A stretch of DNA of 64,000 nucleotides, from the NCBI GenBank assembly GCA_018436855.1, contig JAHDKO010000029.1, positions 13,157-77,156 of the forward strand. Reading direction: 5' to 3'. The notes under the pieces were generated by a model. The model was given only the letters and a program-made list of their open reading frames with translations, was not told where the DNA came from and made no database searches. Within the stretch, counting starts at the first letter, position 1; each line of letters begins with the position of its first letter. This document shows, in pieces, positions 10,185-36,872 of the stretch. Both the position numbers and the translations under genes were made by a program. This stretch comes from Deltaproteobacteria bacterium (GTDB taxonomy: Bacteria; Desulfobacterota; Desulfomonilia; UBA1062).

Positions 10185-11033
10185 CTATCCCGGTTCGGGA
10201 TCATCCCCCCGGACAACCCTGCACAGGGACAGCAGCAGGAAGAGCGACACGAGATAGATCATGAGTCCGGCATATTCATGGAAAAAACCCTCTGCGACCG
10301 CACTCCCGTAGAAGTGCGCCAGAACGCCCGTGGCCACCACTCTCACCGCGTTGGCGAACACGGTAATGGGAATCACCAGCAGGATGACCAGGGCCCTCTT
10401 CCAGTTCTTTTTGAGCATGATGCAGGCCACGACCGACCCGATGGCGAAAAGGGAGATCAGCGAGCGAATGCCGCTGCAGGCATCGGCCACCTCCAGGGTC
10501 GTGTTCGCCAGGTGCACGAGGTTTCCCTCGCGAAGGACCGGTATGTGGAGCAGGGTGAGGCTCATTGCGGCGCAGCAGGAGGTGAAGAGCTTCAGGGGAA
10601 AGGCGATGCTGTCGTAGAGCATGTAGGGTATGGGGATCATGAACATGAGAAAGGCCAGTGCCGGAGATACAGACTTGAGCATGCCCCTGCCGAAAAAGAG
10701 CAGCACCATGCCGGCCATTACCACGAGCAGTGAAAACCGCTGCAGAAAGAGCTCGGCGCCCGCGCGCCCGGCCACCAGCATGGCCAGGCCCGCCCCCATG
10801 AGCACCAGCCCCGGGAACGAGGGCCTTTTTATCCGGTTCAACCGGACCAGATGCGCCCTCTTGCGCCAGAGAAGGTAGAGGGAGACAACCGGCACCACGA
10901 AGCCGTGGGAGTAGTTGGGGTCCTTCCACCAGTCGAAGACGAGCTTGAGCAGAACTTCGTGGTATACGAGCACCACGAGCGCGATCAGGCCAAGGACTTT
11001 CAGATAGGGCATCACAATTGTCAGGGGAGACAC
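10185..11033 (-). CDS. exosortase, XrtA/EpsH-like, copy 1
   Basis: 282 aa polytopic membrane protein with the exosortase motifs [23 protein letters not shown] and NAVRV. It overlaps the downstream EpsI gene. The ORF-track start is a GTG, so the start is uncertain. Confidence 0.85.
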
Positions 11034-11662
11034 TGCATCATGTGGGGGTACAGGCGGGAGGCAAACGCCTGCAGGCGTTCCTCGGCCTCGGGCACGGACA
11101 GGGCTGCATCCGTGGAGATGCGCACCAGCGCGCCGTCGTTCCTCCCCAGGACTATGGTGTCAAGAATCAGATAGAGCTTTTCGCGGTATTCGCTGGTGAT
11201 CACCCTGCCCCTGGACTGAAACCAGTAGTACACCACCTGCATGCCATCGTCCTTGCGGATCAGGAGCCTGTTCACGGGGATTTCCCCGCCGGGCGCCGGG
11301 GCCAGTGGGATAACCCTTGTCTCGCAGGACGCCACCTCCCATCCGCTTCCCGTATAACAGCGGCGCGGCGAATGAATGGTGCGGCCCACGCCCTGGCGGC
11401 TGTAAAACCCGATGTACACCGATACCGGCGGACGATCGGGTGCTGCATACGCCCGCATGATGTACTGATCGACCCCGGCGTTCTCCAGGGTGCCGGCATC
11501 GAAGGTCATGGAGATTCCGCTCCATGTATCCAGCGTCAAGGGAATATCCTCCAGCGCCCTGACAAGCGGGGTCTGTCCGGCCCTGTCCATGGCCTGCAGG
11601 CACCCCATGGTGATCAGGAGCAGGATCACCGCCCCCGGGAAGTGAAGACTTATTTTCATCAT
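11021..11662 (-). CDS. EpsI-family exosortase-associated periplasmic protein, copy 1
   Basis: 213 aa with signal peptide MMKISLHFPGAVILLLITMGCLQA and a CYTGSGWEV block as in EpsI (the methanolan locus partner of EpsH). It sits directly upstream of the exosortase and overlaps it. Confidence 0.75.
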   Translation of the reverse strand: MMKISLHFPGAVILLLITMGCLQAMDRAGQTPLVRALEDIPLTLDTWSGISMTFDAGTLENAGVDQYIMRAYAAPDRPPVSVYIGFYSRQGVGRTIHSPRRCYTGSGWEVASCETRVIPLAPAPGGEIPVNRLLIRKDDGMQVVYYWFQSRGRVITSEYREKLYLILDTIVLGRNDGALVRISTDAALSVPEAEERLQAFASRLYPHMMQCLP

Positions 11663-12029
11663 TCGGCAATCACTCTCTCAACTGGGCACCGGCTGTTCAG
11701 TGGGCATCGGGCTGAAGTCTCTCTGGTGGCCGTCACCTTCAATCCGGGGCGAAGGCATCGGCCATTGCCCGCATTTTGCGCCTCGCCAGCCGTATCGCGC
11801 GGCCGGTCCGAAAGCGCTCTCAGGGCATTACATGGTGTTCTTCAGGAAGGGCGCCCCCTGGACCGGGGTGAAAGCTCCGCTACGGCAGGTGAAAAAACCC
11901 CCTTCAAGCTTACCAATACGACAGCATATTCGTTTCCAACGGTATCAAAATATATAGATAGAAAGATCGAGATCAATCACAAGTGGCAAGTGTCCTAAAA
12001 AACCGTCTTCACGCTCGCCTTCCGGCCCC

Positions 12030-12707
12030 TCATGCGCCCCCGGCGGCACGCAGCCCGGCTTCCTGGACCGCTACGGGGAGTGCCTTCTCCACCCCTTCGA
12101 GGATCGGCCTGTTTTTTTCACGGTTGAACCGGATGAAATCCCTGCTCGATTCGTAGTTGATGATCCGGGCGGGGACGCCCAGCACCACGGCGTTGTCCGG
12201 GATGGATTTCGACACCACGGAATTGGCGCCCACCACCACGTTGCTGCCTATGGTGATCTTCCCCACGATCTTTGCCCCGGGCGCGATGTACACGCAGTCG
12301 CCGATGCACCTCGGACGGCCCCAGTTCTGGCCTCTTCCGCCGTAGCCCACGGATACCTCCTGGCTGATGTTGACCAGCTTTCCGATGGTAACTCCGCCGC
12401 CGATGAAGATGTTGCCGTAGTGGCCGATGTACAGTCCCGGACCGATATCGGCCCCGGTCTCGATGGTGATTCCGGTGCTGAGCTCGACCAGCAGCTGGAG
12501 CACGCCCCCGACGATCTTCATGACCGCGCGCATCGCCTGTGATCCGCACTCGTATTCGGCCCACCTCCTGAGCCGGTACACGGCGGTCGCCCATACCCCC
12601 TGTGTGAGCAGCAGGATCTTGATCTTGCTCAGCATCGTCACCCGGGAAACCTCGTCGGTGGGATAGATATACCGGTAGAGATCATACCGCAGATAGGTAA
12701 ACTGCAT
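12030..12707 (-). CDS. serine O-acetyltransferase-like hexapeptide-repeat acetyltransferase, CysE/WcaB-like
   Basis: The N-terminus LRYDLYRY...WATAVYRLRRW matches the CysE N-terminal region, and left-handed beta-helix repeats IGPGLYIGHYGNIFIGGGVTIGK...IGANSVV are present. Confidence 0.8.
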   Translation of the reverse strand: MQFTYLRYDLYRYIYPTDEVSRVTMLSKIKILLLTQGVWATAVYRLRRWAEYECGSQAMRAVMKIVGGVLQLLVELSTGITIETGADIGPGLYIGHYGNIFIGGGVTIGKLVNISQEVSVGYGGRGQNWGRPRCIGDCVYIAPGAKIVGKITIGSNVVVGANSVVSKSIPDNAVVLGVPARIINYESSRDFIRFNREKNRPILEGVEKALPVAVQEAGLRAAGGA

Positions 12708-12941
12708 ACCTCCTCCCCGAGAACCATATTCCCTTCCCTGCCCGAGACTGTTTCTCCCGGGTGGAGAACGGTGCCCTTCACAAAGTGTATGGACAAGCCC
12801 CTTGGGTTTTCCTCATTCCAACGCCCTTTACCGGCAGTGTTGCTCAAGGGAGTGTACATGCCCCCGGCGGCAAACAGGCACGCGGCCCTTCCGCCGTATC
12901 CAGCCGGCGAACGCGACGTGAGCCGTCACGGACGGCGCCTA

Positions 12942-13721
12942 TCAGACCATCGTGCCTTCGAAGAGCGGCTTGACCGGGTTCGCGTCCCTTTGCAGCTTCA
13001 GGTCCGTGAATATATCCGCCGTATCCTGTTTTTCATGCTCGGGCCGGAGATCGATGCCGAACTCCCTGGATATGTCTTCCGAGGCCGAGATGAGAATGAA
13101 CTCGGCCCCTCGATAGTCGAGGAGATCCGGAGGCTCGGCGCTGCCGAAGTCTTGGCCGTGGAAGGCCTGCTGCAGGTCTGCGGGAAAATCCGCCCGCTCG
13201 CCTTCACCCAGGCCGGACTCGGCGCTGCGCCCTCCTTTCCGGGGGTTCTTGACGATGATGATATAGCTCGCCTCGTCCTCGACCTTCAGGATGTCCTGGG
13301 CCTGGCCCGGCTTCTTGGGGAGCTCGAGCGAATACACCAGGTGCGTGTGGTCCTTGTGCTTGAGTATCCGGTAGAGGCCCTCCCCCACCGGCCTGGCGGC
13401 GGGCGTTCTCCCCTCTTCAGGGGTGTCCGGCCCCGGACGGGGCGATTTGAGCTCGTCGCGGATGGGCTCGGGGGCTCCGGCAACCTGGTCGATGAATCCC
13501 CAGAACCTGCCCCGACCCCTTCTGGCGGGATCGGGCAGGCGCTTGCGCCCAATGACCGCGAGCCGGTACCGAGCCTTTTCGTCAGGGCTCAAGACCATGT
13601 ACATCCTCTGAACATCGCCGAGATCCTCCGGGTGGGTCTCTCCGGTCTTCGGCCGGTAGAAGAAATAGATGTTGCCACGCTCGAGTGTTCTCACGTCTTC
13701 ACTGGCCATGGGCGGCTCCAT
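12942..13721 (-). CDS. hypothetical protein, partly low-complexity, function unknown
   Basis: 259-aa ORF with non-biased composition blocks (ERGNIYFFYRPK, YRILKHKDHTHLVYSLELPKK). It is co-directional with its neighbours and the antisense frames look like R-rich artefacts. The start may instead be at M5. Confidence 0.5.
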   Translation of the reverse strand: MEPPMASEDVRTLERGNIYFFYRPKTGETHPEDLGDVQRMYMVLSPDEKARYRLAVIGRKRLPDPARRGRGRFWGFIDQVAGAPEPIRDELKSPRPGPDTPEEGRTPAARPVGEGLYRILKHKDHTHLVYSLELPKKPGQAQDILKVEDEASYIIIVKNPRKGGRSAESGLGEGERADFPADLQQAFHGQDFGSAEPPDLLDYRGAEFILISASEDISREFGIDLRPEHEKQDTADIFTDLKLQRDANPVKPLFEGTMV

Positions 13722-13828
13722 TTCGATCGTTTACCATTATTAGTATGCTGGCATGTACGATTCTCAAGCCGGTGATACTCCATCAAAACCAGAAATGAGC
13801 TCCACCCCTTGAGCGGAAATGCCCTGTC

Positions 13829-13860
13829 CAAAAAAAAAGCCCCCGGGGTCGCGGGGGCAG
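13829..13860 (-). terminator. rho-independent terminator downstream of the secreted-protein gene
   Basis: The plus strand reads AAAAAAAA-GCCCCCG-GGGTCG-CGGGGGC. On the minus-sense transcript this is a 7-bp GC stem-loop followed by U9, and it lies about 40 nt after the stop at 13899. Confidence 0.7.
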
Positions 13861-13898
13861 AGTGAGGCATTTTAAGGAGATATCTTGCTCGAAGACTT

Positions 13899-14993
13899 TT
13901 ATCCTTTCGGGTTGACGAGCTGGACCGAAACCCCGCGGGGCGGATCCGGCTTGACGTTCGGGGCTGCCATGGTGGTGAACGAATAGCTCACCGGGTCCAT
14001 GGTGTTTCCGGCCAGGTCCTTTGCGCTCACCGCGACCGTAACGGCCGTGCCGTGGATGAAGTTCAGGGCCGGGTCGTAGGTGACGGTATAGTCGGCCGCG
14101 GTCCCGGTGATCACCGGCGTGACCGTTGTCCCGTTCACTCTCAGGGAGATGGAGCTCTTGTCAACGCCGCTGCCCGAGTCCTTGACGTGGAAGGTGATGT
14201 TCGCATCCACGGGAACCGATGCAGCGCCCGAAAGGGGGCTCACGTCGGTCAGATAGGGAGAAACGGTGTCCTGGGGCTCGGTTGCCGTGGGCATGCCGTC
14301 CCAGACTTCCAGGTCGTCGATCTGGCGCGAGAACGATCCGGGCTCTTCGGCGTCGATGGAGGGCGTGGAGATGTAATACATGGCCCTGGTCCACTTGCCT
14401 GAGCCGAAGTTGTCGTTCACGGTCAGCTTGCCGTCGTACCAGAACTTGTGGATCCCTGCGGAGAACTTCACATAGAACTCATAGCGGTGCCACTTGCCGT
14501 CGGTCTGGTTCGGGCAGTTGAGCCACCTGCCCTGGGTGAGGAACTGGCCCCTGCCCTTTGCGGAATAATAGATTGTGTCGTCGTTGCACATGGCATAGTG
14601 GACATAGCTGTCCACCCCGTCCCAGTGGGGATAGAACAGCTTCAGGTTTTCGTGGCTGTCGGTCTGTTTGAAGGTGGGGTAGCGCATCCAGAACGAGACG
14701 TAGAACTCGTCGGTGGGCCAGGGATTGGGTACGTTCTTTCTCCAGCACAGGTGGGCCTCGCTGATGGTTCCGGATGAGAAGCAGTAGCCCTTCCCGTCTC
14801 TGCCCACCTGGTTGAGATTGTATTGCGGCGGGTTCAGGACCGCCCAGTTGTGGCCGTAGACGATGAACCTGCTCGTGTCTATGGACTGGTCGTCGAAGTT
14901 TTCGTACAGGAGACGGTTGGCTGCCAGGACGTCGATACCGGTCAAGGCGATGATGACAAAAACCATCGTGGTGATCTTTCCTATGGTGCTCAA
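13899..14993 (-). CDS. secreted protein with LamG or jelly-roll-like domain plus C-terminal bacterial Ig-like domains, a possible polysaccharide lyase or hydrolase
   Basis: I infer a TTG start at 14993 preceded by GAGGGGG with an 8-nt spacer, giving the signal peptide MSTIGKITTMVFVIIALTGIDVLAA. The ORF-track N-terminal extension is R-rich and rejected. The C-terminal third has Ig-like repeats (ITFHVKDSGSGVDKSSISLRVNGT...). The gene has its own terminator and a 480-bp upstream intergenic region. Confidence 0.65.
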   Translation of the reverse strand: MSTIGKITTMVFVIIALTGIDVLAANRLLYENFDDQSIDTSRFIVYGHNWAVLNPPQYNLNQVGRDGKGYCFSSGTISEAHLCWRKNVPNPWPTDEFYVSFWMRYPTFKQTDSHENLKLFYPHWDGVDSYVHYAMCNDDTIYYSAKGRGQFLTQGRWLNCPNQTDGKWHRYEFYVKFSAGIHKFWYDGKLTVNDNFGSGKWTRAMYYISTPSIDAEEPGSFSRQIDDLEVWDGMPTATEPQDTVSPYLTDVSPLSGAASVPVDANITFHVKDSGSGVDKSSISLRVNGTTVTPVITGTAADYTVTYDPALNFIHGTAVTVAVSAKDLAGNTMDPVSYSFTTMAAPNVKPDPPRGVSVQLVNPKG

Positions 14994-15601
14994 GGCTATA
15001 ACCCCCTCGTCGTTGTTTGGACTAAAGGGCAGCAACAAGCATACCAGGCGGCGCTGGCTCCAGGGCCGGAAACACCGGCCATGCCTCTTGCCTCGGGAAA
15101 AAGGCGGGGCCGTTTTGGCCATGGATTATCACCGGTTAGACCGGCGCCGCAGCTTACCCCGGACGTGTTCCGACTCCCGGCGGGAGAAGGTGGATACCCC
15201 TTTCCTTCGCTCATGAACGGGCATTTATGTGCATGCTTCGCACAGAGGTTCAGTGGTATCAGATCGTTCATTCCCTGCATGGAAAGATGATACGGAAAAG
15301 GCCCCGTGAAACCTTCCGGGGCCTCGTGAGACGCTATCGGAGGAGGACATCCTCCTTTTTTTCTTTCCGTACCGGCTCGAAGATTTATATCCTGTAGAGT
15401 GTACAGGCAGCGGGAGAATCCTTAAAAAAAGCTGCCGTATATTTCACACCGGCATCGATCCCGCATCCCGGACTCGGGCGTGATTTGTAACATTCCGGCC
15501 ACAATTGTAACAAATCATCCCTGCCGGGTGCACCCTCCGCGGTGGACGGGGGTATCGCCCCCTGAGACCGCCTCGGGGGAGCAAGCCCGAGCGCCGGCGG
15601 A

Positions 15602-17491
15602 TCATGCCCGCTTCCCCTCGGCAGGGCCTGTCTCCCTGATCTCCTGAAAGGAGAAGTGGGGCCGGATATTGTCCTTTCTCATCCTCATCTCCAGGGTCAT
15701 GATGTTGCCGAGCTGGCTGTAATAGGGAAAGCCCGCCTCCCCTGCCTCCTCATAAAACCGGCTGTATCTGCGGGGATCGTACAGGCCCTGGGTGAGCAGC
15801 GAGGAATAGGTGAAATCTTTGCGCACCTCCGGGTGGGAGAACAGGCAGGAGAAATACCACGACGGCTGGTAGTTCACCGAGGTGTCCAGCAGGATGGTGC
15901 GGTTCAGGGCCTTCTGCACGGCCTTGCGCACGCCCTTCTTGGCATAGTCGGCGAGCAGGGGGAAAAAGGTGTGGGCATTGCCGATCGTGATGTTCCGGCA
16001 TGGTGCGCCGTTGAGCATCCTCAAGCCGGCCAGGGGCTCGGAGAGCCGGGCGATCACGCTCTTGACCAGCCTGCCGCCCTTCTTGTATCCGGGCGACACG
16101 GCGAGGACCAGGTCCAGATTCCTTTTCAGGGTGAGCGGAGCCAGGGCGCTCACGATCTGGCTGGAGCTGCTCATGGTCCTGCCCGCCCATCTCCTGATCT
16201 TCTGCCGCAGATAGAGGTTGTCGATCTGCAGCGTGTTGTAGGAGCCGTGCAGGTCCATGTCGGCCAGCGTGTCCAGAAAGACCGACTTGAGCGTGTCCTT
16301 CACACCCAGCATTCTCCGGCGCCAGGGCTCGGAGAATATGGAATGGTCGTACTCGTACTGGAGCATCCGCATGCCGATCAGCCTGTCGAGATTTGCAGGT
16401 CTCTTCGAGCCATAGAACTCCTGGATCCACCAGAAGTCGCGATACAGTTCTCCGCCCAGCCCGTTTATGGAGCAGGAGCTCTCCCTGGCCTTGTGCTCCT
16501 GGGCCAGGAGGATGGGCGCGTAGACCATAAGGTTTTCTTCCCCGTCGGTCACCTGAAGGGATTGCTCGAAATAGTCCGGGAGGATATCGGGCCAGTCACG
16601 GGGAAGCTCCAGATGATGGTTCGGGAGGCCCAGACTCTCGCAGTAGCCCCTGACCAGGCTCACCTCCCGGGACGCTTTCGGTCCGAACACGAAGGTGGGC
16701 AGCTCTGGAAAGGCCCGGTGCCGGGAAAAGGCGGCGACGAGCAGGCGCGAGTCAAAGCCTGCGGTAAAGTCGCACACCATGTTCTCCCGCGACAGGGGCG
16801 CGGTGCTCTCGATCAGGTTTTCCACCAGCAGGTCCCTCGCCCGGTCGAACGACAGGTCCCGGCGTATCTCGACCGGGCTTCTCCAGTACGGCCGGCCCGA
16901 GAGCTCCGTGACCTCGCCCGAGCCCGGGATGCGGTAGATGCAGGCCGGCTCCAGCAGGGTGATCTCCTGATAGATGGTGCCGGAGCCGTAGGTGTTCGAG
17001 GTCCGGAGAAACTGCGCCACATTGTCCGGATCGGGCGTGACCGGGAAATGCGTGGAGAGTGCCATGGACGAGGAGCTGACAGCCCAGTTCCGCCCCGACC
17101 GGCAGGCATAGACGTTGACGATGCCCGCATGGTCGGTCGCGAGCGCGAGGCTGCCGTCGATATGATCCCTGATCGCCAGAAAGAACGGCCCGTCGCAGTT
17201 TTCCATCAGGCTTTCCAGAGGGCGTTCGTGAAGGTCATGCCAGAGATCCTCCAGCGCGTCCCTGCCCGCCCGGTTGCCGTATATCAGCGTGCCCATGATC
17301 CAGACGCTTATCTTCTCGTGGGTGATGAAGTTGAAATCAACAGCGGATTTCCGGGAGAACTTCGAGAGCAGAACCTGGCCCCAGCCTTCGTCGTGAGTGG
17401 GCTGGAGCCCTTTCTGCCGGACAAAGAACCGCCGCATAGCTTCGTGATCGTCGCCCATGCGCTCTCCTACGGTTATGAGAATGCCTGCCAT
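15602..17491 (-). CDS. asparagine synthetase B-family (AsnB-like) amidotransferase homolog with a degenerate active site
   Basis: 629 aa with a strong GGAGGAGGAAG RBS. AsnB blocks are present (VWIMGTLIYGN similar to IVFNGEIYN; GPFFLAIRD...DHAGIVNVY similar to GMFAFALWD...GIKPLYY). However, residue 2 is Ala (MAGILI versus the canonical MCGI nucleophile), and the PP-loop reads TAGFDS instead of SGGLDS. Confidence 0.8.
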   Translation of the reverse strand: MAGILITVGERMGDDHEAMRRFFVRQKGLQPTHDEGWGQVLLSKFSRKSAVDFNFITHEKISVWIMGTLIYGNRAGRDALEDLWHDLHERPLESLMENCDGPFFLAIRDHIDGSLALATDHAGIVNVYACRSGRNWAVSSSSMALSTHFPVTPDPDNVAQFLRTSNTYGSGTIYQEITLLEPACIYRIPGSGEVTELSGRPYWRSPVEIRRDLSFDRARDLLVENLIESTAPLSRENMVCDFTAGFDSRLLVAAFSRHRAFPELPTFVFGPKASREVSLVRGYCESLGLPNHHLELPRDWPDILPDYFEQSLQVTDGEENLMVYAPILLAQEHKARESSCSINGLGGELYRDFWWIQEFYGSKRPANLDRLIGMRMLQYEYDHSIFSEPWRRRMLGVKDTLKSVFLDTLADMDLHGSYNTLQIDNLYLRQKIRRWAGRTMSSSSQIVSALAPLTLKRNLDLVLAVSPGYKKGGRLVKSVIARLSEPLAGLRMLNGAPCRNITIGNAHTFFPLLADYAKKGVRKAVQKALNRTILLDTSVNYQPSWYFSCLFSHPEVRKDFTYSSLLTQGLYDPRRYSRFYEEAGEAGFPYYSQLGNIMTLEMRMRKDNIRPHFSFQEIRETGPAEGKRA

Positions 17492-26715: not shown

Positions 26716-26744
26716 GGCTTTGTCCTTATGTCTTTGTATTTGAA

Positions 26745-28112: not shown

Positions 28113-28133
28113 GAAGACTGACTCCTGTTTTCT

Positions 28134-29420: not shown

Positions 29421-29605
29421 GATGGTTGAAACAGACTCCTTTTTTTCAGCCTTTTACGTGCTCTGCCCCTGAAGCCCGGCAGTCACCGGCGAGAACACCG
29501 GGACAGCTCCTGGCCCCCATTTTAGCGGCAGGCGGCGAAGAAGTGCACGCGAAAGGCTCGCAAGGGGAGGCAGGAGACCTGCATGGGGGCTTGGGGCCGA
29601 GCCGG

Positions 29606-31090
29606 TCATTCCCACGGCCTCACTACGCCCTCGGCGGGCCGGAAGATCGATCCGATCCGGCTCTTTTCCTCGGGAGTGAAGAAATTCACGAGCAGGAGCA
29701 CGAGCGGGAACATGAAAACCAGCAGCGTCTTGACGGCGACATCGGCATAGACCGAGGCCGTGTTCACCTGCAGCGAGAGAAAATAGATGACCGAAGCCGC
29801 CAGAAAGATCTTTCCCATCCGGATGAACTCGAAGTGGATCTTGAAGAACCGGTTGCTGAAGAAATAGGTGGAGGCGGCCTTGTAGATGTAGGCGACGAGC
29901 GTTGCGTACGCTGCGCCGTACATCCCGTATCTCGGGATGAGCAGAAAGTTCAGGATCAGCACGAGTGCCGCGTTCGAGACATTGATATAGGCCAGATATT
30001 TGGTTTTTTTCTCGATGATGATGCCCATGTTGAAGTGATAATGGAAGGTGAAGATCACGTTTGCCAGCACGATGATCGGGACGATCCTGTACGCCGGCCA
30101 GAACGCCCGGTCCGCGATGACGACCAGGATCTCCTCGGTGAGCACGGCCACGCCCAGGGCAACGAACGAGATAAACAGAAGGAAGTAGGTGAATATCCTG
30201 CCGAATATCTCCTCGGCGTTCTCCTGGTTGTAGACCTCGAGCCTCCGGGGCTGCCAGACCTGGTTGAAGGGCTCGGACACGAAGGTGCCGGGCAGGATGC
30301 CAAAACGGTATCCGAGCGAGTAGATCCCGGCCTCGGCAATGGAGCAGTAACCCTTGATGAAGAACCGGTCCGAGAGGTTCACGATGAGCGTGCCGAACTG
30401 CGACGGGATCATGGGGAGACCGAACTTGAGCATGTCTTTGATGATCCTCGGCGAATACCCGAGCCCGGCCTTCACCAGCTGCGGCACGTTGAGGACCAGG
30501 GACATGACGATGGAGGTGATGAGCGTGCTCAGAAGAATGCCCAGGACCCCCATGCGCAGCACGATGATGAAATAGATGTTCAGGGCAATGGCCAGGACGA
30601 GCCTGAAGAGCGAGAGCACAACGAACTGGACGGACTTCAGGGTCACCCTGAGGTAGTTGAGCCCGATGGTGTTGATGGTCTGGAACCACAGGGACGCAAA
30701 TGCAATCAGGAAATAGACATAGAGCCCTGAGGAGTCGAGAATGTAGCGGGCCATGACCGGCGAGCCCAGGGAAAGGATGCACACGAAGATCAGCCCGAAT
30801 ATGCCCAGGAATATGTAGGATGAGCTCAGCACCATGTTCCGGTCGCTCTCCTCGGTATAATCGAAATAGAACCGGTAAAAGGCGGATGAAATGGCGGTAG
30901 CCAGGAGGATCCCCAGGATGTCCGTGCTCAGGCCCACGAGCTCCTTGATGCCGTATTCACGGGTGGAGAGGTACTGGGTGTAGATGGGCAGGAGGAGGAA
31001 TCCCACGATCTTGTTGGCACTCGTCCCGATCCCGTAGATGATCGAGTGCCTGGCCAGCAGTTTTGACTCATTCCCGACGCTTATTGCCAC
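29606..31090 (-). CDS. Wzx-type oligosaccharide/polysaccharide flippase, MOP superfamily
   Basis: 494 aa with about 12-14 TM helices. The N-terminus ARHSIIYGIGTSANKIVGFLLLPIYTQYLSTREYG is typical of the polysaccharide biosynthesis protein family. Confidence 0.8.
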   Translation of the reverse strand: MAISVGNESKLLARHSIIYGIGTSANKIVGFLLLPIYTQYLSTREYGIKELVGLSTDILGILLATAISSAFYRFYFDYTEESDRNMVLSSSYIFLGIFGLIFVCILSLGSPVMARYILDSSGLYVYFLIAFASLWFQTINTIGLNYLRVTLKSVQFVVLSLFRLVLAIALNIYFIIVLRMGVLGILLSTLITSIVMSLVLNVPQLVKAGLGYSPRIIKDMLKFGLPMIPSQFGTLIVNLSDRFFIKGYCSIAEAGIYSLGYRFGILPGTFVSEPFNQVWQPRRLEVYNQENAEEIFGRIFTYFLLFISFVALGVAVLTEEILVVIADRAFWPAYRIVPIIVLANVIFTFHYHFNMGIIIEKKTKYLAYINVSNAALVLILNFLLIPRYGMYGAAYATLVAYIYKAASTYFFSNRFFKIHFEFIRMGKIFLAASVIYFLSLQVNTASVYADVAVKTLLVFMFPLVLLLVNFFTPEEKSRIGSIFRPAEGVVRPWE

Positions 31091-31157
31091 ATGTATGGTC
31101 TCGGAAAGACAGGCTTATGAAAAAACAGGGGCAACCATCCCCGATGGATGGGGCCGC

Positions 31158-32579
31158 TTACGGGAGCGGGTGTTCACCGGGGACCCCCGCCCTCCGGATA
31201 TTCGACTCGTTGAAGATGTGTATGAGGTCCTTCACCTGGACCGTGACGTCATATCGGGAATTGTCGAAGCCGGGCGCGAGTTTCTCATTTTCTTGTTCCC
31301 GGTTTTGTTCTTCCCGGGCCCGGCCTTTTCGGAGATATTCTTCATATGCATTGTCGAGTGCCTTGAGAAGGGACGGATAGTCGTCGTGCGGGGCGTGGTA
31401 GAAGTTGCCGTAGTCCCGGATGATATCGAGGGCCTCGCTCTCCTGCATGATTGCGAGGATCGGACGTTTCACCGCCATGTACTCGTAGAGCTTGGAGGTG
31501 ATGACCCCGGCGCTCTTGCTGTCGTGTCCGATGATGAGGAGGAGAAGATCGGCGCCCTTCTGTTTGCGGATGATCTCGTCGTGCGGGATCAGCCCGCTCG
31601 TCCTGACCACATGCTCCAGCCCCAGCTCATGCGCCAGGGCTCCCGCCTTCTCGCATCCCATGCCGTAGAAGAGGGCCTGGACGTTGTCCCGCACCGAGGG
31701 ATCCTTGGTCTCCAGCCACCTGGCCAGGCCGTGGATGAAAAAGTCCGGGCTGATGGTCCCGTAGAGTGTCCCGCCGAACAGGATGGTGAACCTGTCGAAG
31801 CTGTCCGGCTGTATGTTTTTGAAAAGGGCCGGGTCAAAGCCGTTTCTGACCACCACGAACTTGCCGCCCATGGCGGGATAGCGATTTTTCAGAGATTGCC
31901 TGTGAGACTCGGTGACCAGAATCACGGTGTCCGCGAACCTGGCAATGATCCTCTCCAGCAGGCCGTGCAGCCACAGCTCTATGCGGAACAGCTCCTCGGT
32001 ATGAAAATTGTCCACAATGGGGTCGCGGAAGTCGGCCACCCAGGGCTTGCGGAAGATCTTTGCCAGGATGAGCCCCGCGAGATGCTCTGAATGAGGGGGC
32101 GAGGTCGTGAATATCACATCGAAGTCTTCCTTGCGCATGAGCCTGATGCCCCTGATCACGGCAAAAGGGATCCAGAACACCATGTGATCGGGGATGGAAA
32201 AGATCTTGAGCAGCGCCGACAGGAAAAACCTCTCGACCCTCTTCACCGCTCCGGCCACCCCGGCCCGGGAGCCGGGATCGCTCAGTGCCGCACGGGCGGC
32301 TTCTCTCCGGGCATCCCTTGCCCGATATCGCTGGATCATTCTCCAGATGTCGAGAATATAGGTCCTGTGTATCCGGACCTCCGGCGGTATACGTTTCATG
32401 AGACTATGGTCACTGTGGATATCCTTTGATTCATTGATCGTGATGACCGTGGGCCTCCAGCCGTTAGCCGGGAGATACCGGCAGAAACGCATGGTCCGAT
32501 AGACCCCTGCGTGCGCGATGGGAGGAAATCCATATGCAATGACCAGCACCTTTTTTTGTTCGAGATCCGCTGTATCCAT
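31158..32579 (-). CDS. glycosyltransferase family 4
   Basis: 473 aa with a GT4-like N-terminal domain (KVLVIAYGFPPIAHAGVYR) and a C-terminal GT1/4 domain. Confidence 0.8.
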   Translation of the reverse strand: MDTADLEQKKVLVIAYGFPPIAHAGVYRTMRFCRYLPANGWRPTVITINESKDIHSDHSLMKRIPPEVRIHRTYILDIWRMIQRYRARDARREAARAALSDPGSRAGVAGAVKRVERFFLSALLKIFSIPDHMVFWIPFAVIRGIRLMRKEDFDVIFTTSPPHSEHLAGLILAKIFRKPWVADFRDPIVDNFHTEELFRIELWLHGLLERIIARFADTVILVTESHRQSLKNRYPAMGGKFVVVRNGFDPALFKNIQPDSFDRFTILFGGTLYGTISPDFFIHGLARWLETKDPSVRDNVQALFYGMGCEKAGALAHELGLEHVVRTSGLIPHDEIIRKQKGADLLLLIIGHDSKSAGVITSKLYEYMAVKRPILAIMQESEALDIIRDYGNFYHAPHDDYPSLLKALDNAYEEYLRKGRAREEQNREQENEKLAPGFDNSRYDVTVQVKDLIHIFNESNIRRAGVPGEHPLP

Positions 32580-32580
32580 G

Positions 32581-33120
32581 TCACCTCGCTCCTATCTTCC
32601 GTGCAGGGTACCCCGCCAGAACGGTACCGGGCGGGTATTCCTTGCGCCCCACCACGGAGTTTGCCGAAACGACGCACCTGCTGCCCAACACGACACCCGG
32701 CATGACAAATACGTTTGCACCCATCCAGACATCGTCGCCGATGATCACCGGCCTGAAGGTATAGCCCTGATCGTGAACCGGGATGTCAGGATTCTTGTAG
32801 TTATGGTTCTGGGTCCATATCCTCGTATAAGGCCCCAGAAGCACGTTATTGCCCATGATGACGCCGCCGCCCGCCTGAATATAGTTGAAGAGTCCGATGT
32901 CGACGCGGTCCCCGCATTTGATGCACCCGGGATTCAGGATGGTGGTCCCCGGGTGAATGCTCAGGCCCCTGCCCGCCTTCCCGAACCTTCTGGTGTACCA
33001 CTCACGCCTGAGGACAACGCCGAAGTCGCCCGGGATGTTTCGCAGCAGCAGTGCAATGTACTGGTCCCTTCCCGTGCGGGACGCCAGGTCCCAGTACAGG
33101 TATTTAAGGATCTCGATCAC
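32581..33120 (-). CDS. hexapeptide-repeat O-acetyltransferase, WcaF/WbbJ/maltose acetyltransferase-like
   Basis: 179 aa with left-handed beta-helix repeats (IGDDVWMGANVFVMPGVVLGSRCVVSANSVV). The ORF-track start is a GTG. Confidence 0.75.
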   Translation of the reverse strand: MIEILKYLYWDLASRTGRDQYIALLLRNIPGDFGVVLRREWYTRRFGKAGRGLSIHPGTTILNPGCIKCGDRVDIGLFNYIQAGGGVIMGNNVLLGPYTRIWTQNHNYKNPDIPVHDQGYTFRPVIIGDDVWMGANVFVMPGVVLGSRCVVSANSVVGRKEYPPGTVLAGYPARKIGAR

Positions 33121-34154
33121 AACGTTTCACGGCGGGGTGACCCGCCCGCCGCATCCAGCCTGTTTACCAGGGATTCGACAATGATCCGCTCGAGGTCCAG
33201 CGAGACGCTCAGGGGCGGGTCGATGTTGTAATCGTTTTTATAGACAAAGGTGGGTTTTTCCTGAAAGGCATAGTGGTGCCATACCGGCGAAAACTCGGAG
33301 ATAAGAAAGCCCTTGTCCGCGGGCATGAGATCGAGATTGACCCAGCTCGCCGGGAGCTCGCGGGCGAGCCTCTCCGAGAGCTCCAGGGCCTCGGGCGGGA
33401 CATAGCTCCACTGGCCGATCCCTCCCCCGTCGATGTTCACCTTCCACTGATCGCTGGAGGCCTGGAAGCGCCAGTGCCCTTCCACCACCTTTCCGTCTCC
33501 CACCACGGTCTTCAGGTCCCGGTCCGTGGTGATGTATTTCTGGGCGAGAAGCGGCGGCGACAGGAAGGGATAGGTCATCTTCCGCTCCTTGAGCAGATTG
33601 TAGTAAAATATGCGCTGCCTCAGCATCCGGAACAGATAGCTCAATGCCCCGGGGTGCACGAAATCGAGCTGCGAGAGCCGGTAGTACGACTCGAGCTCGG
33701 CCCTGTCGCGGACGAGGAACACGGCCCCGCCTCCCGCGCCGTAACGGTTCTTCACCACCATGGGATATCCCAGCCGCTGGTGGGCGATCTCCACCGCTTT
33801 CCACGAGAGCAGGGGAACGGTCTCCGGTATGGGGAACCCGTGCGACCTGAGAAAGAGATGCTGGCGGTACTTGTCGTTGTAGAAATAGATCAGGCCCGGG
33901 TCCGGATATATCACCAGGCCGGGAAAGTCGCGGTGGATATGCGCCAGGTTGTCGTACACCCGGTAGAGCGCCAGGGGATGGTGCGAAGAGAACTCGAAGC
34001 TCGAATAAAAGATGAGAAAATCCACGCTCGTGTAGTCGAAATCGATCCATTCCTGGTTGTCGAACGACAGGATCACCGGTTCGATGCCGTATCGCTGAAG
34101 CGTGTTCCGAAACGACCCGAACCGTTCCTCTGAATGTATCAGAACCGCCTTCAT
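33117..34154 (-). CDS. ATP-grasp domain protein
   Basis: The start is taken at MKAVLIHSEERFG (in frame, 45th codon of the ORF). It contains YPMVVKNRYGAGGGAVFLV and WVNLDL. Confidence 0.7.
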   Translation of the reverse strand: MKAVLIHSEERFGSFRNTLQRYGIEPVILSFDNQEWIDFDYTSVDFLIFYSSFEFSSHHPLALYRVYDNLAHIHRDFPGLVIYPDPGLIYFYNDKYRQHLFLRSHGFPIPETVPLLSWKAVEIAHQRLGYPMVVKNRYGAGGGAVFLVRDRAELESYYRLSQLDFVHPGALSYLFRMLRQRIFYYNLLKERKMTYPFLSPPLLAQKYITTDRDLKTVVGDGKVVEGHWRFQASSDQWKVNIDGGGIGQWSYVPPEALELSERLARELPASWVNLDLMPADKGFLISEFSPVWHHYAFQEKPTFVYKNDYNIDPPLSVSLDLERIIVESLVNRLDAAGGSPRRETL

Positions 34155-34162
34155 GCTCGTGC

Positions 34163-35329
34163 TCAGGCCTCCTTTCCCTGCCGGACAGGTTTCCAGGATA
34201 TCACTCTCCTGCCCCGGAGATAGTCGATGACGCCAAACATGGCCGCCAGGTTCACCAGGATGAAGTAGTAGGGGATGGCGTACCACTTACCGCCCGATCC
34301 GCCCCGGGACCCCATGCCGTAGAACGACAGGCCCAGGACGGCTGCCAGACCGCAGAACGCCAGCAGGAAAAACCTCCGGCCCGCGAGGAACAGGGAGGAG
34401 ACCAGCATCCCCGCATAATAGAACCCCACCAGCCATCTGAGGATTTTGTGAGACAGGATCTGCCACGCAAGCAGCGGCTTTCTGGCTGGGTTGAGGAGTT
34501 GAGGATACCGGGAGATGCCGGTGAACCCGCGGGTCACGATCCTGCGCCTGGTGTTGAACTCGTCTCCGGTGCTGGTGGTCGCCTCCTCATAGGTGACGGC
34601 ACCGGGCTCGTACACTACGCTGGAGCCGTTGCTGATGACCAGCAGCGGCGAGATGAAGTCGCTCATCATGTCCTGGTCGAGGTTGGTGTAGAGTGACTTG
34701 CGGATCGCGTACAGCGGACCGTCCACCCCCACGAGCGAGCCCAGGGAGCTCTCGGCTTGTTTGAGGATCTGCTCGTACTTCCAGTATACTCCCTGGCTTT
34801 CGGTGGTGAGGTTTTTGCTCTCCCGGGTGAAGACCACCCTGCCGGCCACCGCCCCCACCCGGCTGTCGGCGAAGTTCGCGACCAGCCTCTTCAGCGAGCA
34901 CTTTTCGCACATCGACGCCGCATCCATGAAGACCACGATCTCGTGGGAGGCCTGACAGACACAATCGTTCTGCACCATGGTCTTGCCGCGGTTCTCGGGA
35001 AACGCCAGCAGGCGCACCCCTTTGCCCGCATACGACCTCACGATCTCGTCGGTCCGGTCGGTCGAGCCGTCAGAGCCCACGATGATCTCGACGAGCTCCC
35101 GGGGATAGTCGAGGGAAAGGGTGTTCTCGATCTTCTCGGCGATGGTTTGTTCCTCGTTATAGGCCGAGATAATGATCGATACGGGGGGGATGATCTCGTT
35201 TCGGATATAGTTCCTGCCGATGAACCGGGACAGTCTGGTGAGGAGAATCGGGTAGATGAAATAGACATACCCGGTCAGCAGAAAACAGGTCCAGAAGATT
35301 GCCGGCAGATAACTGGTGTGTATGATCAT
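34163..35329 (-). CDS. glycosyltransferase family 2, membrane-anchored processive-type
   Basis: 388 aa with N-terminal TM helices, the GT2 catalytic domain VSIIISAYNEE...VGSDGSTD...D.AS, and C-terminal TM helices. Confidence 0.85.
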   Translation of the reverse strand: MIIHTSYLPAIFWTCFLLTGYVYFIYPILLTRLSRFIGRNYIRNEIIPPVSIIISAYNEEQTIAEKIENTLSLDYPRELVEIIVGSDGSTDRTDEIVRSYAGKGVRLLAFPENRGKTMVQNDCVCQASHEIVVFMDAASMCEKCSLKRLVANFADSRVGAVAGRVVFTRESKNLTTESQGVYWKYEQILKQAESSLGSLVGVDGPLYAIRKSLYTNLDQDMMSDFISPLLVISNGSSVVYEPGAVTYEEATTSTGDEFNTRRRIVTRGFTGISRYPQLLNPARKPLLAWQILSHKILRWLVGFYYAGMLVSSLFLAGRRFFLLAFCGLAAVLGLSFYGMGSRGGSGGKWYAIPYYFILVNLAAMFGVIDYLRGRRVISWKPVRQGKEA

Positions 35330-35406
35330 GTTCAGGAGCTGGAGAGTGCGGTTGTGCTTGGGGTCGGTCAGAGAGCGCTGTTTACGGATTCATGGATACT
35401 GCTTTA

Positions 35407-36042
35407 TCACAAGCCGGTAAAATAATTGCCGAGAAGGGGCATGAGCTGGCCTCCGAACATCGTGAGCCTGTCTTCGTCGCCCGTGGTATCATCGCCGAGC
35501 GCCACCGATATTCTCACCCACACGGTTGAGGGGTGTTTGCCGGTAATGCTGCGAATCACCTGGTAGAACCGGTTGACGCTGTTGCGCGGGATGGTCTTGT
35601 CGCCGGTCTGCCACCAGGCATAGACCAGCTCCTGCCTTTCGAGCTTTTCGATCACCATCCGGTTGACCATGGCGTGCCGCGGGCCAAGTTTTCTCGACAC
35701 GATATTGTTTTCCTTCATGGACCATCCCTGCCCCGTGTAGCATACCTCCGGGGCATGAACCATGTCGGCGGAGTTTACATTCTGATAATATGCAAGATAC
35801 ACACTGACCTCATCTTGCTCACAACGGTATGTCCTGAACACGACCCTCTGAGCCCCGATCGCCTCTTTGAGGCCCTCGATGTCGGCATCGACGTCCGAGC
35901 CGATCCACTGCCCGATGGTGGGAGGGATTGCGTATGTGCAGGTTTGTTCTGAATACAGGGCCTTTTTCAGGCCGTGGGAAGAGCCGTACACACTCAGCGC
36001 AAAAACCAGGACATATATTGCATTCTTTTTCGTTCTATCCAT
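35407..36042 (-). CDS. EpsI-family exosortase-associated protein, copy 2
   Basis: 211 aa from MDRTKKNAIYVLVFALSVYGSS (signal peptide). It contains CYTGQGWSM and VYAWWQTGDKT blocks paralogous to 11021..11662. The upstream 323 aa of the ORF-track ORF are rejected as an R-rich out-of-frame artefact. Confidence 0.75.
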   Translation of the reverse strand: MDRTKKNAIYVLVFALSVYGSSHGLKKALYSEQTCTYAIPPTIGQWIGSDVDADIEGLKEAIGAQRVVFRTYRCEQDEVSVYLAYYQNVNSADMVHAPEVCYTGQGWSMKENNIVSRKLGPRHAMVNRMVIEKLERQELVYAWWQTGDKTIPRNSVNRFYQVIRSITGKHPSTVWVRISVALGDDTTGDEDRLTMFGGQLMPLLGNYFTGL

Positions 36043-36872
36043 CTGACAAGGAACACACCGCCCAGCAAGAGGACAAACGAGAGAATAAAGGTCACCAGGC
36101 CTGCCATGGTATGGGGAAACCCTTCGGCCATGCCGGGGGAGAAACGGTAGACAATGAATCCGGCAGCGGTGATCCTGAGGATGTTCCCGATCATGGCCAC
36201 GGGAACGGACAGCGAGAGGAGGAGCGCTCTCTCGACATTCGAGGTGAAGAGCAGGTATCCCATGAGAAGAGACAGCGCGACAATGGAAAGCAGAGAACGG
36301 ATGCCAGAGCACGCCACCACCACCTGCATGGAGTAGTTCGGAAGGTGGATGAGATTCCCCTCCCGCAACACGGGAATGTCGATCAGGTTCAGGATATGGG
36401 CCGACAGGCCGGTGGTGACGGCCTGAAGCGGTGCAGTGAGCAGGGTATACACCTCTGCCGGTATGGGGACCATGAGGACCAGGAACACGACGGGGAAGAG
36501 CACGACCCGGGTGAAACGCACCCCTGCGGTGAAAAGCAGGGCGCCCAGCAGAAACATGATCAGGGAACAGCACTCGAACATCAGTATCTGCGCGCCGACC
36601 CCCAGCAGATAGAACACCGCCCACAGGGAAAGAACCATGAGCCCCAGCGGGCTCGAGTGCAGCGGCTGCCTCATGAGCTGCCGCCTCCTTTGCCACACGA
36701 GGTACGCCGATACCGGAATGATCAGAAAGCCGTGATTGTAGTCCTCGTTTCTTGCCCACAGGGCGGCGAGCTCGATGAGGGTTGACGAGTAGAGGAGCAC
36801 GGCCAGTATCCCGAACAGGACAAGATACCAGAGAGGCCGCAGGGTATATGATGACTCGACAGTGGATATCAT
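35994..36872 (-). CDS. exosortase, XrtA/EpsH-like, copy 2
   Basis: 292 aa with [27 protein letters not shown] and NILRI. It is about 50-60% identical to copy 1 in the conserved core. Confidence 0.85.
   Translation of the reverse strand: MISTVESSYTLRPLWYLVLFGILAVLLYSSTLIELAALWARNEDYNHGFLIIPVSAYLVWQRRRQLMRQPLHSSPLGLMVLSLWAVFYLLGVGAQILMFECCSLIMFLLGALLFTAGVRFTRVVLFPVVFLVLMVPIPAEVYTLLTAPLQAVTTGLSAHILNLIDIPVLREGNLIHLPNYSMQVVVACSGIRSLLSIVALSLLMGYLLFTSNVERALLLSLSVPVAMIGNILRITAAGFIVYRFSPGMAEGFPHTMAGLVTFILSFVLLLGGVFLVRWIERKRMQYMSWFLR

Follow-up and report, generated by a model that had tools for sequence, protein, structure and literature searches.

Two exosortase/EpsI pairs and the genes around them

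We detected two gene pairs, each encoding an exosortase and an EpsI protein, in a 64,000-nucleotide stretch of contig JAHDKO010000029.1 (the window). An earlier note on this DNA had described a complete exosortase with EpsI twice and in the same orientation, and the coordinates, minus strand, family models and motifs of all four genes agree with that description. The internal order of the pairs is opposite, EpsI1 preceding Xrt1 (non-canonical) whereas Xrt2 precedes EpsI2 (canonical), and in the latter pair the two genes share a 49-nt overlap at the 3' end of Xrt2. Between the pairs lie ~23.7 kb of glycosyltransferase, flippase, Wzy-like and ligase genes. Gene identities in the two sets that we call blocks A and B were taken from NCBIfam and Pfam matches, and are listed here in the direction of the minus strand.

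35994-36872, minus strand: Xrt2, exosortase, 292 aa, first gene of block A
35407-36042, minus strand: EpsI2, cognate partner of Xrt2 and downstream of it, 211 aa
34163-35329, minus strand: GT2 glycosyltransferase
33117-34286, minus strand: RimK-like ATP-grasp protein
32581-33120, minus strand: hexapeptide acetyltransferase
31158-32579, minus strand: GT4 glycosyltransferase
29606-31090, minus strand: Wzx flippase
28134-29420, minus strand: Wzy_C / O-antigen-ligase-like protein
26745-28112, minus strand: CapK-like adenylate-forming ligase
25396-~26721, minus strand: PGA_cap protein
24345-25436, minus strand: polysaccharide deacetylase
23125-24243, minus strand: GNAT-like protein
21856-23082, 20934-~21800 and 19622-20767, minus strand: three GT4 glycosyltransferases
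17517-~19607, minus strand: GFO/IDH/MocA-SDR fusion
15602-17491, minus strand: AsnB-like amidotransferase
13899-15122, minus strand: membrane-anchored Big_5 protein
13839-13858, minus strand: intrinsic-terminator-like hairpin, GCCCCCG...CGGGGGC then T9 (7 G-C pairs, 6-nt loop)
12942-13721, minus strand: 259-aa hypothetical protein, between hairpin and EpsI1
12030-12707, minus strand: serine-acetyltransferase-like hexapeptide protein, between hairpin and EpsI1
11021-11662, minus strand: EpsI1, partner of Xrt1 and upstream of it, 213 aa
10185-11033, minus strand: Xrt1, XrtA-like exosortase, 282 aa from a GTG start (275 aa from the alternative NCBI start, ATG at 11012)
8950-10143, minus strand: WecB UDP-GlcNAc 2-epimerase, downstream of Xrt1
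5306-8773, minus strand: 1155-aa secreted Golvesin_C/PKD protein
4036-5142, minus strand: ATPgrasp_ST protein
2767-3978, minus strand: cyanophycin-synthetase-like ATP-grasp protein
2066-2770 and 1386-2114, minus strand: two GNAT-like proteins
1-1389, minus strand: 466-aa ATP-grasp protein, cut by the window edge

Block A is a ~23-kb Wzx/Wzy block whose first gene pair is Xrt2–EpsI2, and its 3' end is proposed to be the terminator-like hairpin, which lies 41 nt past the Big_5 gene; this operon boundary was placed by scanning for consensus terminators and by promoter matches, which were weak. Several intergenic gaps measure 180–480 bp. Downstream of Xrt1 the cluster extends for at least 13 kb, and an APH-domain protein and a polysaccharide deacetylase are encoded beyond the window edge before the contig ends. 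The idea that the two pairs bracket one EPS block therefore fails, because the cluster continues past Xrt1: Xrt2–EpsI2 heads block A, and EpsI1–Xrt1–WecB starts a second set, block B, that runs past the window edge.

Intactness and divergence of the pairs

All four proteins passed the generic models for their families. Xrt1 and Xrt2 scored 239 and 227 bits against Pfam Exosortase_EpsH (PF09721; cutoff 25.7) and 198.8 and 208.7 bits against TIGR02602 (cutoff 105.55), while EpsI1 and EpsI2 scored 139.9 and 103.4 bits against TIGR02914 (cutoff 42.8) and 183 and 128 bits against PF11984. In a search with the curated exosortase subtype models, neither exosortase reached a cutoff, the XrtA model (TIGR03109) giving 207.4 bits for Xrt1 and 198.4 for Xrt2 against a cutoff of 208. 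Both exosortases keep the motifs Cys-x-Gly, Asn-x-x-Arg and His-x-x-x-Gly (C186/N228/R231/H252 in Xrt1, C188/N230/R233/H254 in Xrt2), and EpsI2 carries the H-x-P-x-x-C-x-x-G-x-G-W motif. Among orthologues down to ~50% identity we found no internal stops, and dN/dS was 0.21–0.27 for Xrt1, 0.17–0.29 for Xrt2 and 0.26–0.31 for EpsI2, so with a range of 0.17–0.31 over both pairs neither is a pseudogene. All four proteins are thus intact, keep the invariant residues of their families and are under purifying selection.

Xrt1 and Xrt2 are 35% identical overall and EpsI1 and EpsI2 29%, and no DNA-level similarity was found between the pairs. An identity as high as the 50–60% previously ascribed to the exosortase core is reached only in the best-matching 40 residues, which surround the active-site Cys (62%). 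In a neighbor-joining tree, built without support values, the exosortases fell in separate clades that are not sisters: Xrt1 was nested among proteins named exosortase A, and Xrt2 in a deep, sparsely populated clade. The label "XrtA-like" consequently fits Xrt1 by grouping but not Xrt2, and both score below the XrtA cutoff. At E<=1e-20, ~6070 relatives were found for Xrt1, and those nearest to it beyond its own clade carry the name exosortase A (~50% identity). For Xrt2 the number was 243, with identity of at most 44% beyond a ~20-member clade and 55–56% in the more distant genomes of its clade (L012–L015); this clade consists of unclassified, lineage-restricted exosortases. The best-scoring match of EpsI proteins across loci points to EpsI2 as the cognate of Xrt2, since EpsI2 was favoured only by the EpsI of Xrt2-clade loci and EpsI1 by that of all others.

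These comparisons support the view, already taken in the earlier note, that the pairs are diverged paralogs and no recent duplication; they are ancient and non-sister, Xrt1 and Xrt2 not being each other's closest relatives. One pair could instead be a redundant or decaying duplicate, either recent or on its way to becoming a pseudogene, as the same two-gene module occurs twice in one cluster, much as a duplication would leave it, with similar XrtA-model scores. That reading is contradicted by the divergence, the kept motifs and the purifying selection, and both pairs are moreover retained in four assemblies; we regard it as highly improbable.

Conservation and apparent rarity of the layout

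Four assemblies have both pairs on the same contig: the one that holds the window, JAHDQN010000007, probably JAHDRW010000038, and Logan SRR26038644_71729, in which Xrt1 is 64% and Xrt2 73% identical. An assembly chimera was therefore rejected. The four closest assemblies agree in their entire gene order from Xrt2 as far as the ATP-grasp genes. Elsewhere the layout appears to be unusual. At all 160 other loci, from genomes and metagenomes, one pair and no second exosortase (0/160) lay within ±10 kb, a span too narrow for a 25-kb spacing, in keeping with the notion that a single pair per locus is normal. EpsI was upstream of the exosortase at none of these 160 loci, the EpsI-first order being confined to the Xrt1 clade, and every one of the 130+ orderable loci elsewhere had Xrt then EpsI.

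The two gene sets also recur in other settings. The order Xrt2–EpsI2–GT2–RimK–hexapeptide–GT4–Wzx–Wzy_C–CapK–PGA_cap adjoins HtpX and LivKHMGF on one JGI contig and in the majority of the eight genomes that represent species. Block B gene order is common to L003, L092, L094 and L096, JGI contigs included, and the 259-aa and serine-acetyltransferase-like proteins keep their position in L003, L006, L093 and L096. In L088 and L089 an EpsI–Xrt–WecB trio, with an Xrt1 58–60% identical, is followed by genes of a different set, which has a Wzx of its own. On the contig of L007, an Xrt2-clade exosortase is divergently oriented to an exosortase of yet another, third type.

We considered whether both exosortases belong to one integrated system, acting in sequence or jointly on the same substrates and polymer from a single operon that brackets one block. 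Such a system would fit the shared orientation of all genes, the conserved gene order described above and the presence of just a single Wzx gene and a single Wzy-like gene in the window. Against these stand the terminator-like hairpin and wide gaps between genes, the continuation of the cluster beyond Xrt1, the different set with its own flippase headed by the Xrt1 trio in relatives, and the divergent partner of the Xrt2-clade exosortase in L007, so that we give a single integrated system only a slim chance.

The host genome is that of a Desulfomonilia-type, sediment-type bacterium that is kin of the phosphite oxidiser Candidatus Phosphitivorax.

Known systems, substrates and proposed function

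The locus resembles the PEP-CTERM/XrtA (EpsH) system (PMC1569441; TIGR03109/TIGR02914) in its eight-TM-type exosortases with three shared motifs, the adjacent EpsI, the clustering of Xrt1 with proteins named exosortase A, and a polysaccharide locus with stp-type GT4s, an O-antigen-ligase-like protein (TIGR03097-like), an asparagine-synthase-like protein, a deacetylase and a CapK-like ligase, though accessory matches in the window were all below family cutoffs. It differs in having two pairs rather than one, both below the XrtA cutoff, and in the position of EpsI1 upstream of Xrt1. The PrsK/PrsR regulators, PrsT, a Wza/Wzc-type exporter, an initiating sugar transferase and chain-length genes are absent from the window. 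The XrtA of Geoalkalibacter subterraneus (CP010311, L091) is 49% identical to Xrt1 and likewise has an adjacent EpsI and a nearby CapK_C ligase, but its locus has a single pair in the order Xrt then EpsI; behind the pair lie genes for a PrsK-like histidine kinase and for a sigma-54 response regulator, both missing from the window. Xrt1 matched best the N-terminal halves of the XrtD (VPLPA-CTERM, TIGR04152) and XrtW (NF038142) models (220–229 bits) and EpsI1 their C-terminal halves (156 or 94 bits), but the summed scores are below the cutoffs of 400 and 425, and those systems have a single fused ~490-aa protein where we find separate genes, in reversed order in the Xrt1 pair. The two-pair layout is thus conserved and unusual, a variation on a known system and not a new one.

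The predicted fold suggests that EpsI1 combines an N-terminal membrane anchor with a periplasmic Mog1/PsbP-like domain. EpsI shares no sequence similarity (7–14% identity) with Mog1/PsbP-like proteins (TM1622, PsbP, PA0094, DcrB and the Eag chaperone SciW), and is set apart from them by an invariant His-x-Pro-x-x-Cys...Gly-x-Gly-Trp motif and by the membrane anchor.

As the earlier note had stated, no PEP-CTERM gene was found in the window, either by two regex scans or by an NCBIfam search that covered 95 C-terminal tails (positions 1–38 kb) and recognised both positive controls; no VPLPA-type signal was seen. Nor did ~25 Xrt1-clade or Xrt2-clade loci yield a gene with a C-terminal sorting signal. 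Of 173 fetched loci, 35 (22/91 and 13/82) gave canonical tails with the same regex, none of them of the Xrt1 or Xrt2 clade. These results, with the missing PrsK/R/T regulators of PEP-CTERM regulons, would also be expected if both pairs served polysaccharide assembly itself without PEP-CTERM-type substrates, for example in attachment or transfer of a polymer or lipid-linked intermediate, one per module. The Xrt–EpsI–GT2–ATP-grasp adjacency recurs in other Desulfobacterota (L019, L036, L059), and XrtG of Gram-positive bacteria, which is not known to have a recognised signal, likewise comes paired with a GT2. The conserved Cys/Arg/His set, however, fits the peptidase/transpeptidase chemistry proposed for the family, and PEP-CTERM genes are typically scattered as single-gene operons (PMC1569441), so their absence from ~90 kb of one contig says little. 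We therefore judge a role in polysaccharide assembly alone unlikely, with a small but real chance of being right.

We suggest, with a probability of roughly 0.7, that the locus is a surface-polysaccharide supercluster in which two modules lie in tandem and each has an exosortase/EpsI pair of its own at its head. This conserved supercluster would exceed 40 kb. Module A would run from Xrt2–EpsI2 through a Wzx/Wzy-type gene set to the terminator-like hairpin at ~13.85 kb, and module B would start near EpsI1–Xrt1–WecB, with the EpsI-first order peculiar to the Xrt1 clade, and run past the window edge. Following the family model (Haft et al. 2006, PMC1569441), each exosortase may be a polytopic inner-membrane Cys/Arg/His transpeptidase that cleaves the C-terminal sorting signal of exported proteins (a PEP-like motif, a transmembrane helix and a basic tail) and passes them on towards the polysaccharide layer, while each EpsI, judging by its fold, may provide a membrane-anchored periplasmic Mog1/PsbP-like binding domain serving its own exosortase. 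The substrates of both systems would be encoded elsewhere in the genome.

The earlier note had offered two distinct sorting specificities or two fused EPS loci, and the fused loci are the better supported of the two because each pair sits upstream in its own gene set, a strong terminator-like hairpin separates the sets, and EpsI–Xrt–WecB heads a different set with its own flippase in relatives. Since no substrate with a C-terminal signal was found in the window or at loci of either clade, sorting function and two specificities are drawn by analogy with the family. By that analogy the systems may be non-redundant and sort two sets of proteins, or each may serve the products of its own module, and two distinct specificities are plausible: XrtD and XrtW offer a precedent for different exosortase clades in one genome recognising different signals.

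Two intact, anciently diverged exosortase/EpsI pairs

Two intact exosortase/EpsI pairs, both under selection and anciently diverged from each other, were detected in the window, which has ~60% G+C overall (GC3 ~0.8) and carries nearly all of its genes from 1 to 57 kb on the minus strand. The four genes are as follows.

Genes of the two exosortase/EpsI pairs
35994–36872, minus strand: exosortase Xrt2, 292 aa, followed by EpsI2
35407–36042, minus strand: EpsI2, 211 aa, starting 49 nt before the Xrt2 stop
11021–11662, minus strand: EpsI1, 213 aa, upstream of Xrt1
10185–11033, minus strand: exosortase Xrt1, 282 aa from a GTG start (the NCBI call is 275 aa from an ATG at 11012)

Both exosortases matched the family model TIGR02602 over its full length (Xrt1 198.8 and Xrt2 208.7 bits, cutoff 105.55), which places them in the exosortase family, and both matched PF09721 (239 and 227 bits, cutoff 25.7). 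The three invariant motifs of the family, Cys-x-Gly, Asn-x-x-Arg and His-x-x-x-Gly (Haft et al. 2006; PMC1569441), occur as C186-S-G, N228-A-V-R231 and H252-E-Y-A-G256 in Xrt1 and as C188-S-G, N230-I-L-R233 and H254-T-M-A-G258 in Xrt2, in columns that are invariant or near-invariant across 110 aligned exosortases. A crude Kyte–Doolittle scan found 7–8 hydrophobic segments in each protein, against a family expectation of about eight transmembrane helices. EpsI1 and EpsI2 scored 139.9 and 103.4 bits against the TIGR02914 cutoff of 42.8 (PF11984: 183 and 128 bits), and each adjoins an exosortase, which places both in the EpsI family. The earlier note had allowed that one copy might miss the family models, lack catalytic residues or be a pseudogene in related genomes; no exosortase or EpsI family model failed for either copy, all motifs are kept in both exosortases, and neither copy is a pseudogene in relatives.

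Xrt1 and Xrt2 are 35% identical over 266–274 aligned residues and EpsI1 and EpsI2 are 29% identical, and blastn found no DNA similarity between the two modules, all of which bears out the earlier description of diverged paralogs rather than a recent duplication. The accompanying figure of about 50–60% identity in the core applies to the 40 best-matching residues, which surround the catalytic Cys (62%), and is too high beyond them, with 46% in the best 80 residues. Compared with orthologues, each of the four genes gave a dN/dS within 0.17–0.31 and showed no internal stop; together with the absent DNA similarity, dN/dS rules out both a recent duplication and a pseudogene.

The two exosortases also differ in their kin. 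At E<=1e-20, Xrt1 has ~6070 relatives, including a tight clade reaching down to 56% identity (the Xrt1 clade), outside which lie many ~50% identical proteins named exosortase A at their source; Xrt2 has 243, of which ~20 form a clade down to 49% (the Xrt2 clade), followed by identities of 44% or less. A neighbor-joining tree, drawn with no support values, put Xrt1 within the exosortase-A-named group and gave the Xrt2 clade a deep branch of its own. EpsI2 was the best-scoring EpsI reference for Xrt2-clade loci only and EpsI1 for all other loci, so each EpsI has co-diverged with its neighboring exosortase.

Both copies had been described as XrtA-like, a label that suits Xrt1, which clusters with exosortase A, and not Xrt2, which falls outside that group. 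Neither reached the 208-bit cutoff of the XrtA model TIGR03109, with Xrt1 at 207.4 bits, a shortfall of 0.6 bit that depends on the chosen start codon, and Xrt2 at 198.4; nor did either reach any curated exosortase subtype cutoff among the models scored. XrtD (TIGR04152) and XrtW (NF038142) are single fused proteins of ~490 aa with model cutoffs of 400 and 425 bits, respectively, whereas the corresponding parts in the window are separate genes, and these gave half-model matches only (Xrt1 220 and 229 bits; EpsI1 156 and 94 bits).

Several smaller features attend the two pairs. The overlap of Xrt2 and EpsI2 is exactly 49 nt (35994–36042) and recurs in the Xrt2 clade, at three fetched loci (L005, L013 and L014) and in the JGI contig of P0137, and conservation of the C-terminal tail of Xrt2, RWIERKRMQYxSWxLR, is unusually strong; tail and fixed overlap may reflect a dual-coding constraint or translational coupling. 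A 534-aa open reading frame at 35407–37011 in a mechanical ORF list proved to be EpsI2 plus a spurious upstream extension, in another frame, over Xrt2. Distant Xrt2-clade loci carry an extra ~290-aa gene directly upstream of the exosortase (9086–9946 in L015, 9123–10004 in the P0137 contig), which had no family match in either; the equivalent position in the window holds only a 435-bp gap (36873–37307). Xrt1 itself ends in ...RGDDPEPG (window 10185–10220), and the PEP tripeptide there is probably a coincidence.

Cluster layout and conservation in relatives

The genes around the two pairs form a polysaccharide cluster that begins beside housekeeping genes and runs to the end of the source contig.

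Gene order from upstream of Xrt2 to the contig end (coordinates on the minus strand)
Upstream of Xrt2, housekeeping: LivFGMHK, HtpX, TspO, V-type ATPase, pyrophosphatase, UvrC, PlsB, enolase
Module A (the set headed by Xrt2–EpsI2), first genes 3' of the pair, in order: GT2, RimK-like ATP-grasp, hexapeptide acetyltransferase, GT4
Module A, next: Wzx flippase (29606–31090, Polysacc_synt/Polysacc_synt_3), Wzy_C/O-antigen-ligase-like protein (28134–29420, weak TIGR03097 match)
Module A, next: CapK-like ligase, PGA_cap protein, polysaccharide deacetylase, GNAT-like protein
Module A, last: three GT4-type genes, GFO/IDH/MocA–SDR fusion, AsnB-like protein, membrane-anchored Big_5 protein
13839–13858: terminator-like hairpin, 41 nt 3' of the Big_5 gene
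Between hairpin and EpsI1–Xrt1: 259-aa hypothetical protein, then hexapeptide acetyltransferase
3' of Xrt1: WecB, 1155-aa secreted Golvesin_C/PKD protein, three ATP-grasp proteins, two GNAT-like proteins
Past the window edge, on the source contig: APH-domain protein, another deacetylase, then the contig end

With a Wzx flippase, a Wzy_C protein, one GT2 and five GT4-type genes, the cluster has the makings of a Wzx/Wzy-dependent locus. No initiating phosphoglycosyl transferase and no Wza/Wzc-type export or chain-length apparatus was found among the window genes; the initiating transferase and exporter may be encoded past the end of the contig or in another part of the genome.

The genes flanking each exosortase place Xrt2 at a true end of the cluster and Xrt1 in its interior. 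The earlier picture of two pairs bracketing one biosynthesis block therefore does not hold, as the cluster continues past Xrt1 and beyond the window edge, and the hairpin lies between the two gene sets. This hairpin (GCCCCCG-loop-CGGGGGC, seven G–C pairs followed by T9) was the strongest reported in the two stretches scanned (8.7–16.0 kb and 35.0–37.5 kb), sits inside a seemingly continuous cluster, and is the only promoter or terminator signal on which we rely, cautiously. In relatives, the EpsI–Xrt–WecB trio is kept at 58–60% identity and is then followed by a different gene set with its own Wzx flippase. Hairpin and trio together favor two tandem modules, each headed by a pair of its own, over a single bracketed block: each pair stands at the upstream end of its own gene set within a conserved supercluster.

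Among the relatives are metagenome-assembled genomes labelled Deltaproteobacteria bacterium SM3-B3m and SV3-B1.1, Desulfomonilia bacterium, Syntrophaceae UBA6087 and Phox-21, the last of which is the type of Candidatus Phosphitivorax anaerolimi. In four assemblies a single contig carries both pairs, counting the window contig, assigned to JAHDNB010000025.1 of MAG GCA_018435705.1: JAHDQN010000007 has Xrt2 at 22.9 kb and Xrt1 at 48.8 kb with 94–96% DNA identity to the window, JAHDRW010000038 has matches to Xrt1, EpsI1 and Xrt2 that appear to share one contig, and a 28.4-kb Logan contig carries both exosortases (Xrt1 64% and Xrt2 73% identical). Because these four assemblies are independent, an assembly artefact or chimera is excluded. 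In most of the eight genomes taken as species representatives (Xrt2 identity down to 55%), and in one JGI contig at 49% identity, HtpX and the Liv transporter adjoin the Xrt2-headed block, and the Xrt1 half is kept in JGI contigs at 70–79% identity. No mosaic or recombination boundary was seen between the modules against the 94–96% identical sister genome, and GC content is uniform over the locus. Exosortase–EpsI–GT2 adjacency with a RimK-like ATP-grasp nearby was also observed in other Desulfobacterota (L019, L036 and L059, from Desulfatitalea, Geopsychrobacteraceae and Syntrophales MAGs), with exosortases merely ~36–38% identical to Xrt2, a recurrence that hints at a wider conserved module.

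Amide-bond-forming enzymes are abundant in the cluster (1–5142, 33117–34286 and 25396–28112), with four ATP-grasp proteins, one of them cyanophycin-synthetase-like, the CapK-like ligase, the PGA_cap protein, the AsnB-like protein and several GNATs, which suggests an amino-acid-decorated or peptide-linked polymer. The 1155-aa protein (5306–8773, minus strand) combines three Golvesin_C domains with four PKD domains and is directly downstream of Xrt1–WecB in relatives too; its stretches HIVFNGHSNFG ... FYGGCNSSNYY resemble a caspase/gingipain-type His...Cys dyad, and it matched no peptidase model.

Sorting substrates and regulatory signals

The earlier finding that the window has no visible PEP-CTERM gene stood up to every search applied: two regex scans and an inspection of all gene C-termini found no C-terminal sorting tail in the window, and NCBIfam PEP-CTERM models matched none of 95 C-terminal tails from window 1–38 kb while matching both of two positive controls. 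Canonical PEP-CTERM tails were picked up by the same regex at 22 of 91 fetched loci and at 13 of another 82, and at no Xrt1-clade or Xrt2-clade locus. As PEP-CTERM genes usually occur as dispersed units of one gene each (PMC1569441), these empty scans of window and loci do not show a genome devoid of them. The Big_5 and Golvesin_C/PKD proteins were considered as in-cluster substrates and rejected, since neither protein ends in a hydrophobic or basic tail.

Proteobacterial XrtA systems are associated with PrsK/PrsR/PrsT regulators and a sigma-54 motif (PMC1569441). In the canonical XrtA locus of Geoalkalibacter, EpsI follows XrtA and is itself followed by a PrsK-like kinase, and a sigma-54 regulator lies further along; unlike that locus, the 64-kb window encodes neither a histidine kinase nor a sigma-54 activator nor a TPR lipoprotein, though such genes could lie elsewhere in the genome. 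Promoter scans gave sigma-70 counts near the shuffled expectation and 22 matches to the sigma-54 pattern versus 26 expected by chance. A TGGCAC...TTGC-like site upstream of Xrt2 was rejected as a sigma-54 promoter because its spacing is wrong. We claim no PEP-CTERM-type regulon signal. Across the whole window, neither Rfam nor tRNA scans gave a match.

Gene order, rarity and possible roles

In Methylobacillus, EpsI lies immediately 3' of the exosortase EpsH (PMC1569441), an order found in Xrt2–EpsI2 and reversed in EpsI1–Xrt1. The EpsI-first order occurred in the Xrt1 clade only (13 loci), versus 130+ loci with the exosortase first, and outside that clade every orderable locus ran exosortase then EpsI. 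Our survey covered 80 genome and 80 metagenome loci fetched with the exosortase alignments, with flanks of <=10 kb on each side. No second exosortase was present within these flanks at any of the 160 loci, consistent with the earlier statement that a single pair is the norm; a second copy ~25 kb away, as in the window, would fall outside this range. One other dual locus, L007 (Logan SRR19071532_15330), has pairs at 3680–5267 and 10001–11547, an Xrt2-clade pair and, 5 kb off on the other strand and divergently transcribed, a third, deeply divergent exosortase/EpsI pair, in a polysaccharide cluster. A literature search for loci with more than one exosortase found nothing.

We regard the locus as a real variant of a known system, distinguished by the Xrt2 exosortase clade, as yet uncurated, and by a clade-specific inversion of gene order. 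Several exosortases per genome are already known, so the arrangement is a mild surprise for specialists and not a striking one. Judging by the family model, each exosortase would act as a Cys/Arg/His transpeptidase that takes the C-terminal anchor off exported proteins, and, by analogy, the two pairs might differ in their clients or in the polymers they serve. A bolder reading makes Xrt2/EpsI2 an unrecognised subfamily that is always the first pair of its own Wzx/Wzy operon and habitually stands beside a second, different exosortase of the same supercluster (XrtA-like here, a third type in L007), giving two parallel sorting channels, each loading its own proteins onto its own polymer, or an Xrt2 that works on a non-PEP-CTERM acceptor; we consider this unlikely, at roughly one chance in five.

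Exosortases are widespread, and few are known to have been studied genetically or biochemically. Practical impact is modest, because the host lineage is uncultured or enrichment-only and no substrates were found. Two divergent pairs side by side in a conserved locus offer a natural experiment on what sets each exosortase's proteins and polymers, and the Xrt2 clade and the EpsI-first order are as yet uncaptured by annotation models.

A search by sequence found no solved structure for an exosortase or EpsI. An AlphaFold2 model of EpsI1 from a 66-sequence alignment (mean pLDDT 94) has an N-terminal helix, which we read as a putative membrane anchor, followed by an alpha/beta sandwich with a predicted Mog1/PsbP-like fold. 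Across the 66 sequences of this alignment (A4), both window copies included, a His-x-Pro-x-x-Cys...Gly...Trp set is invariant (His97, Pro99, Cys102, Gly107 and Trp147 in EpsI1), which may form a metal-binding, redox or catalytic site. On this model EpsI would be a periplasmic binding partner of its own exosortase, and the Mog1/PsbP-like fold gives a testable form to the idea, with EpsI as a periplasmic binding adaptor.
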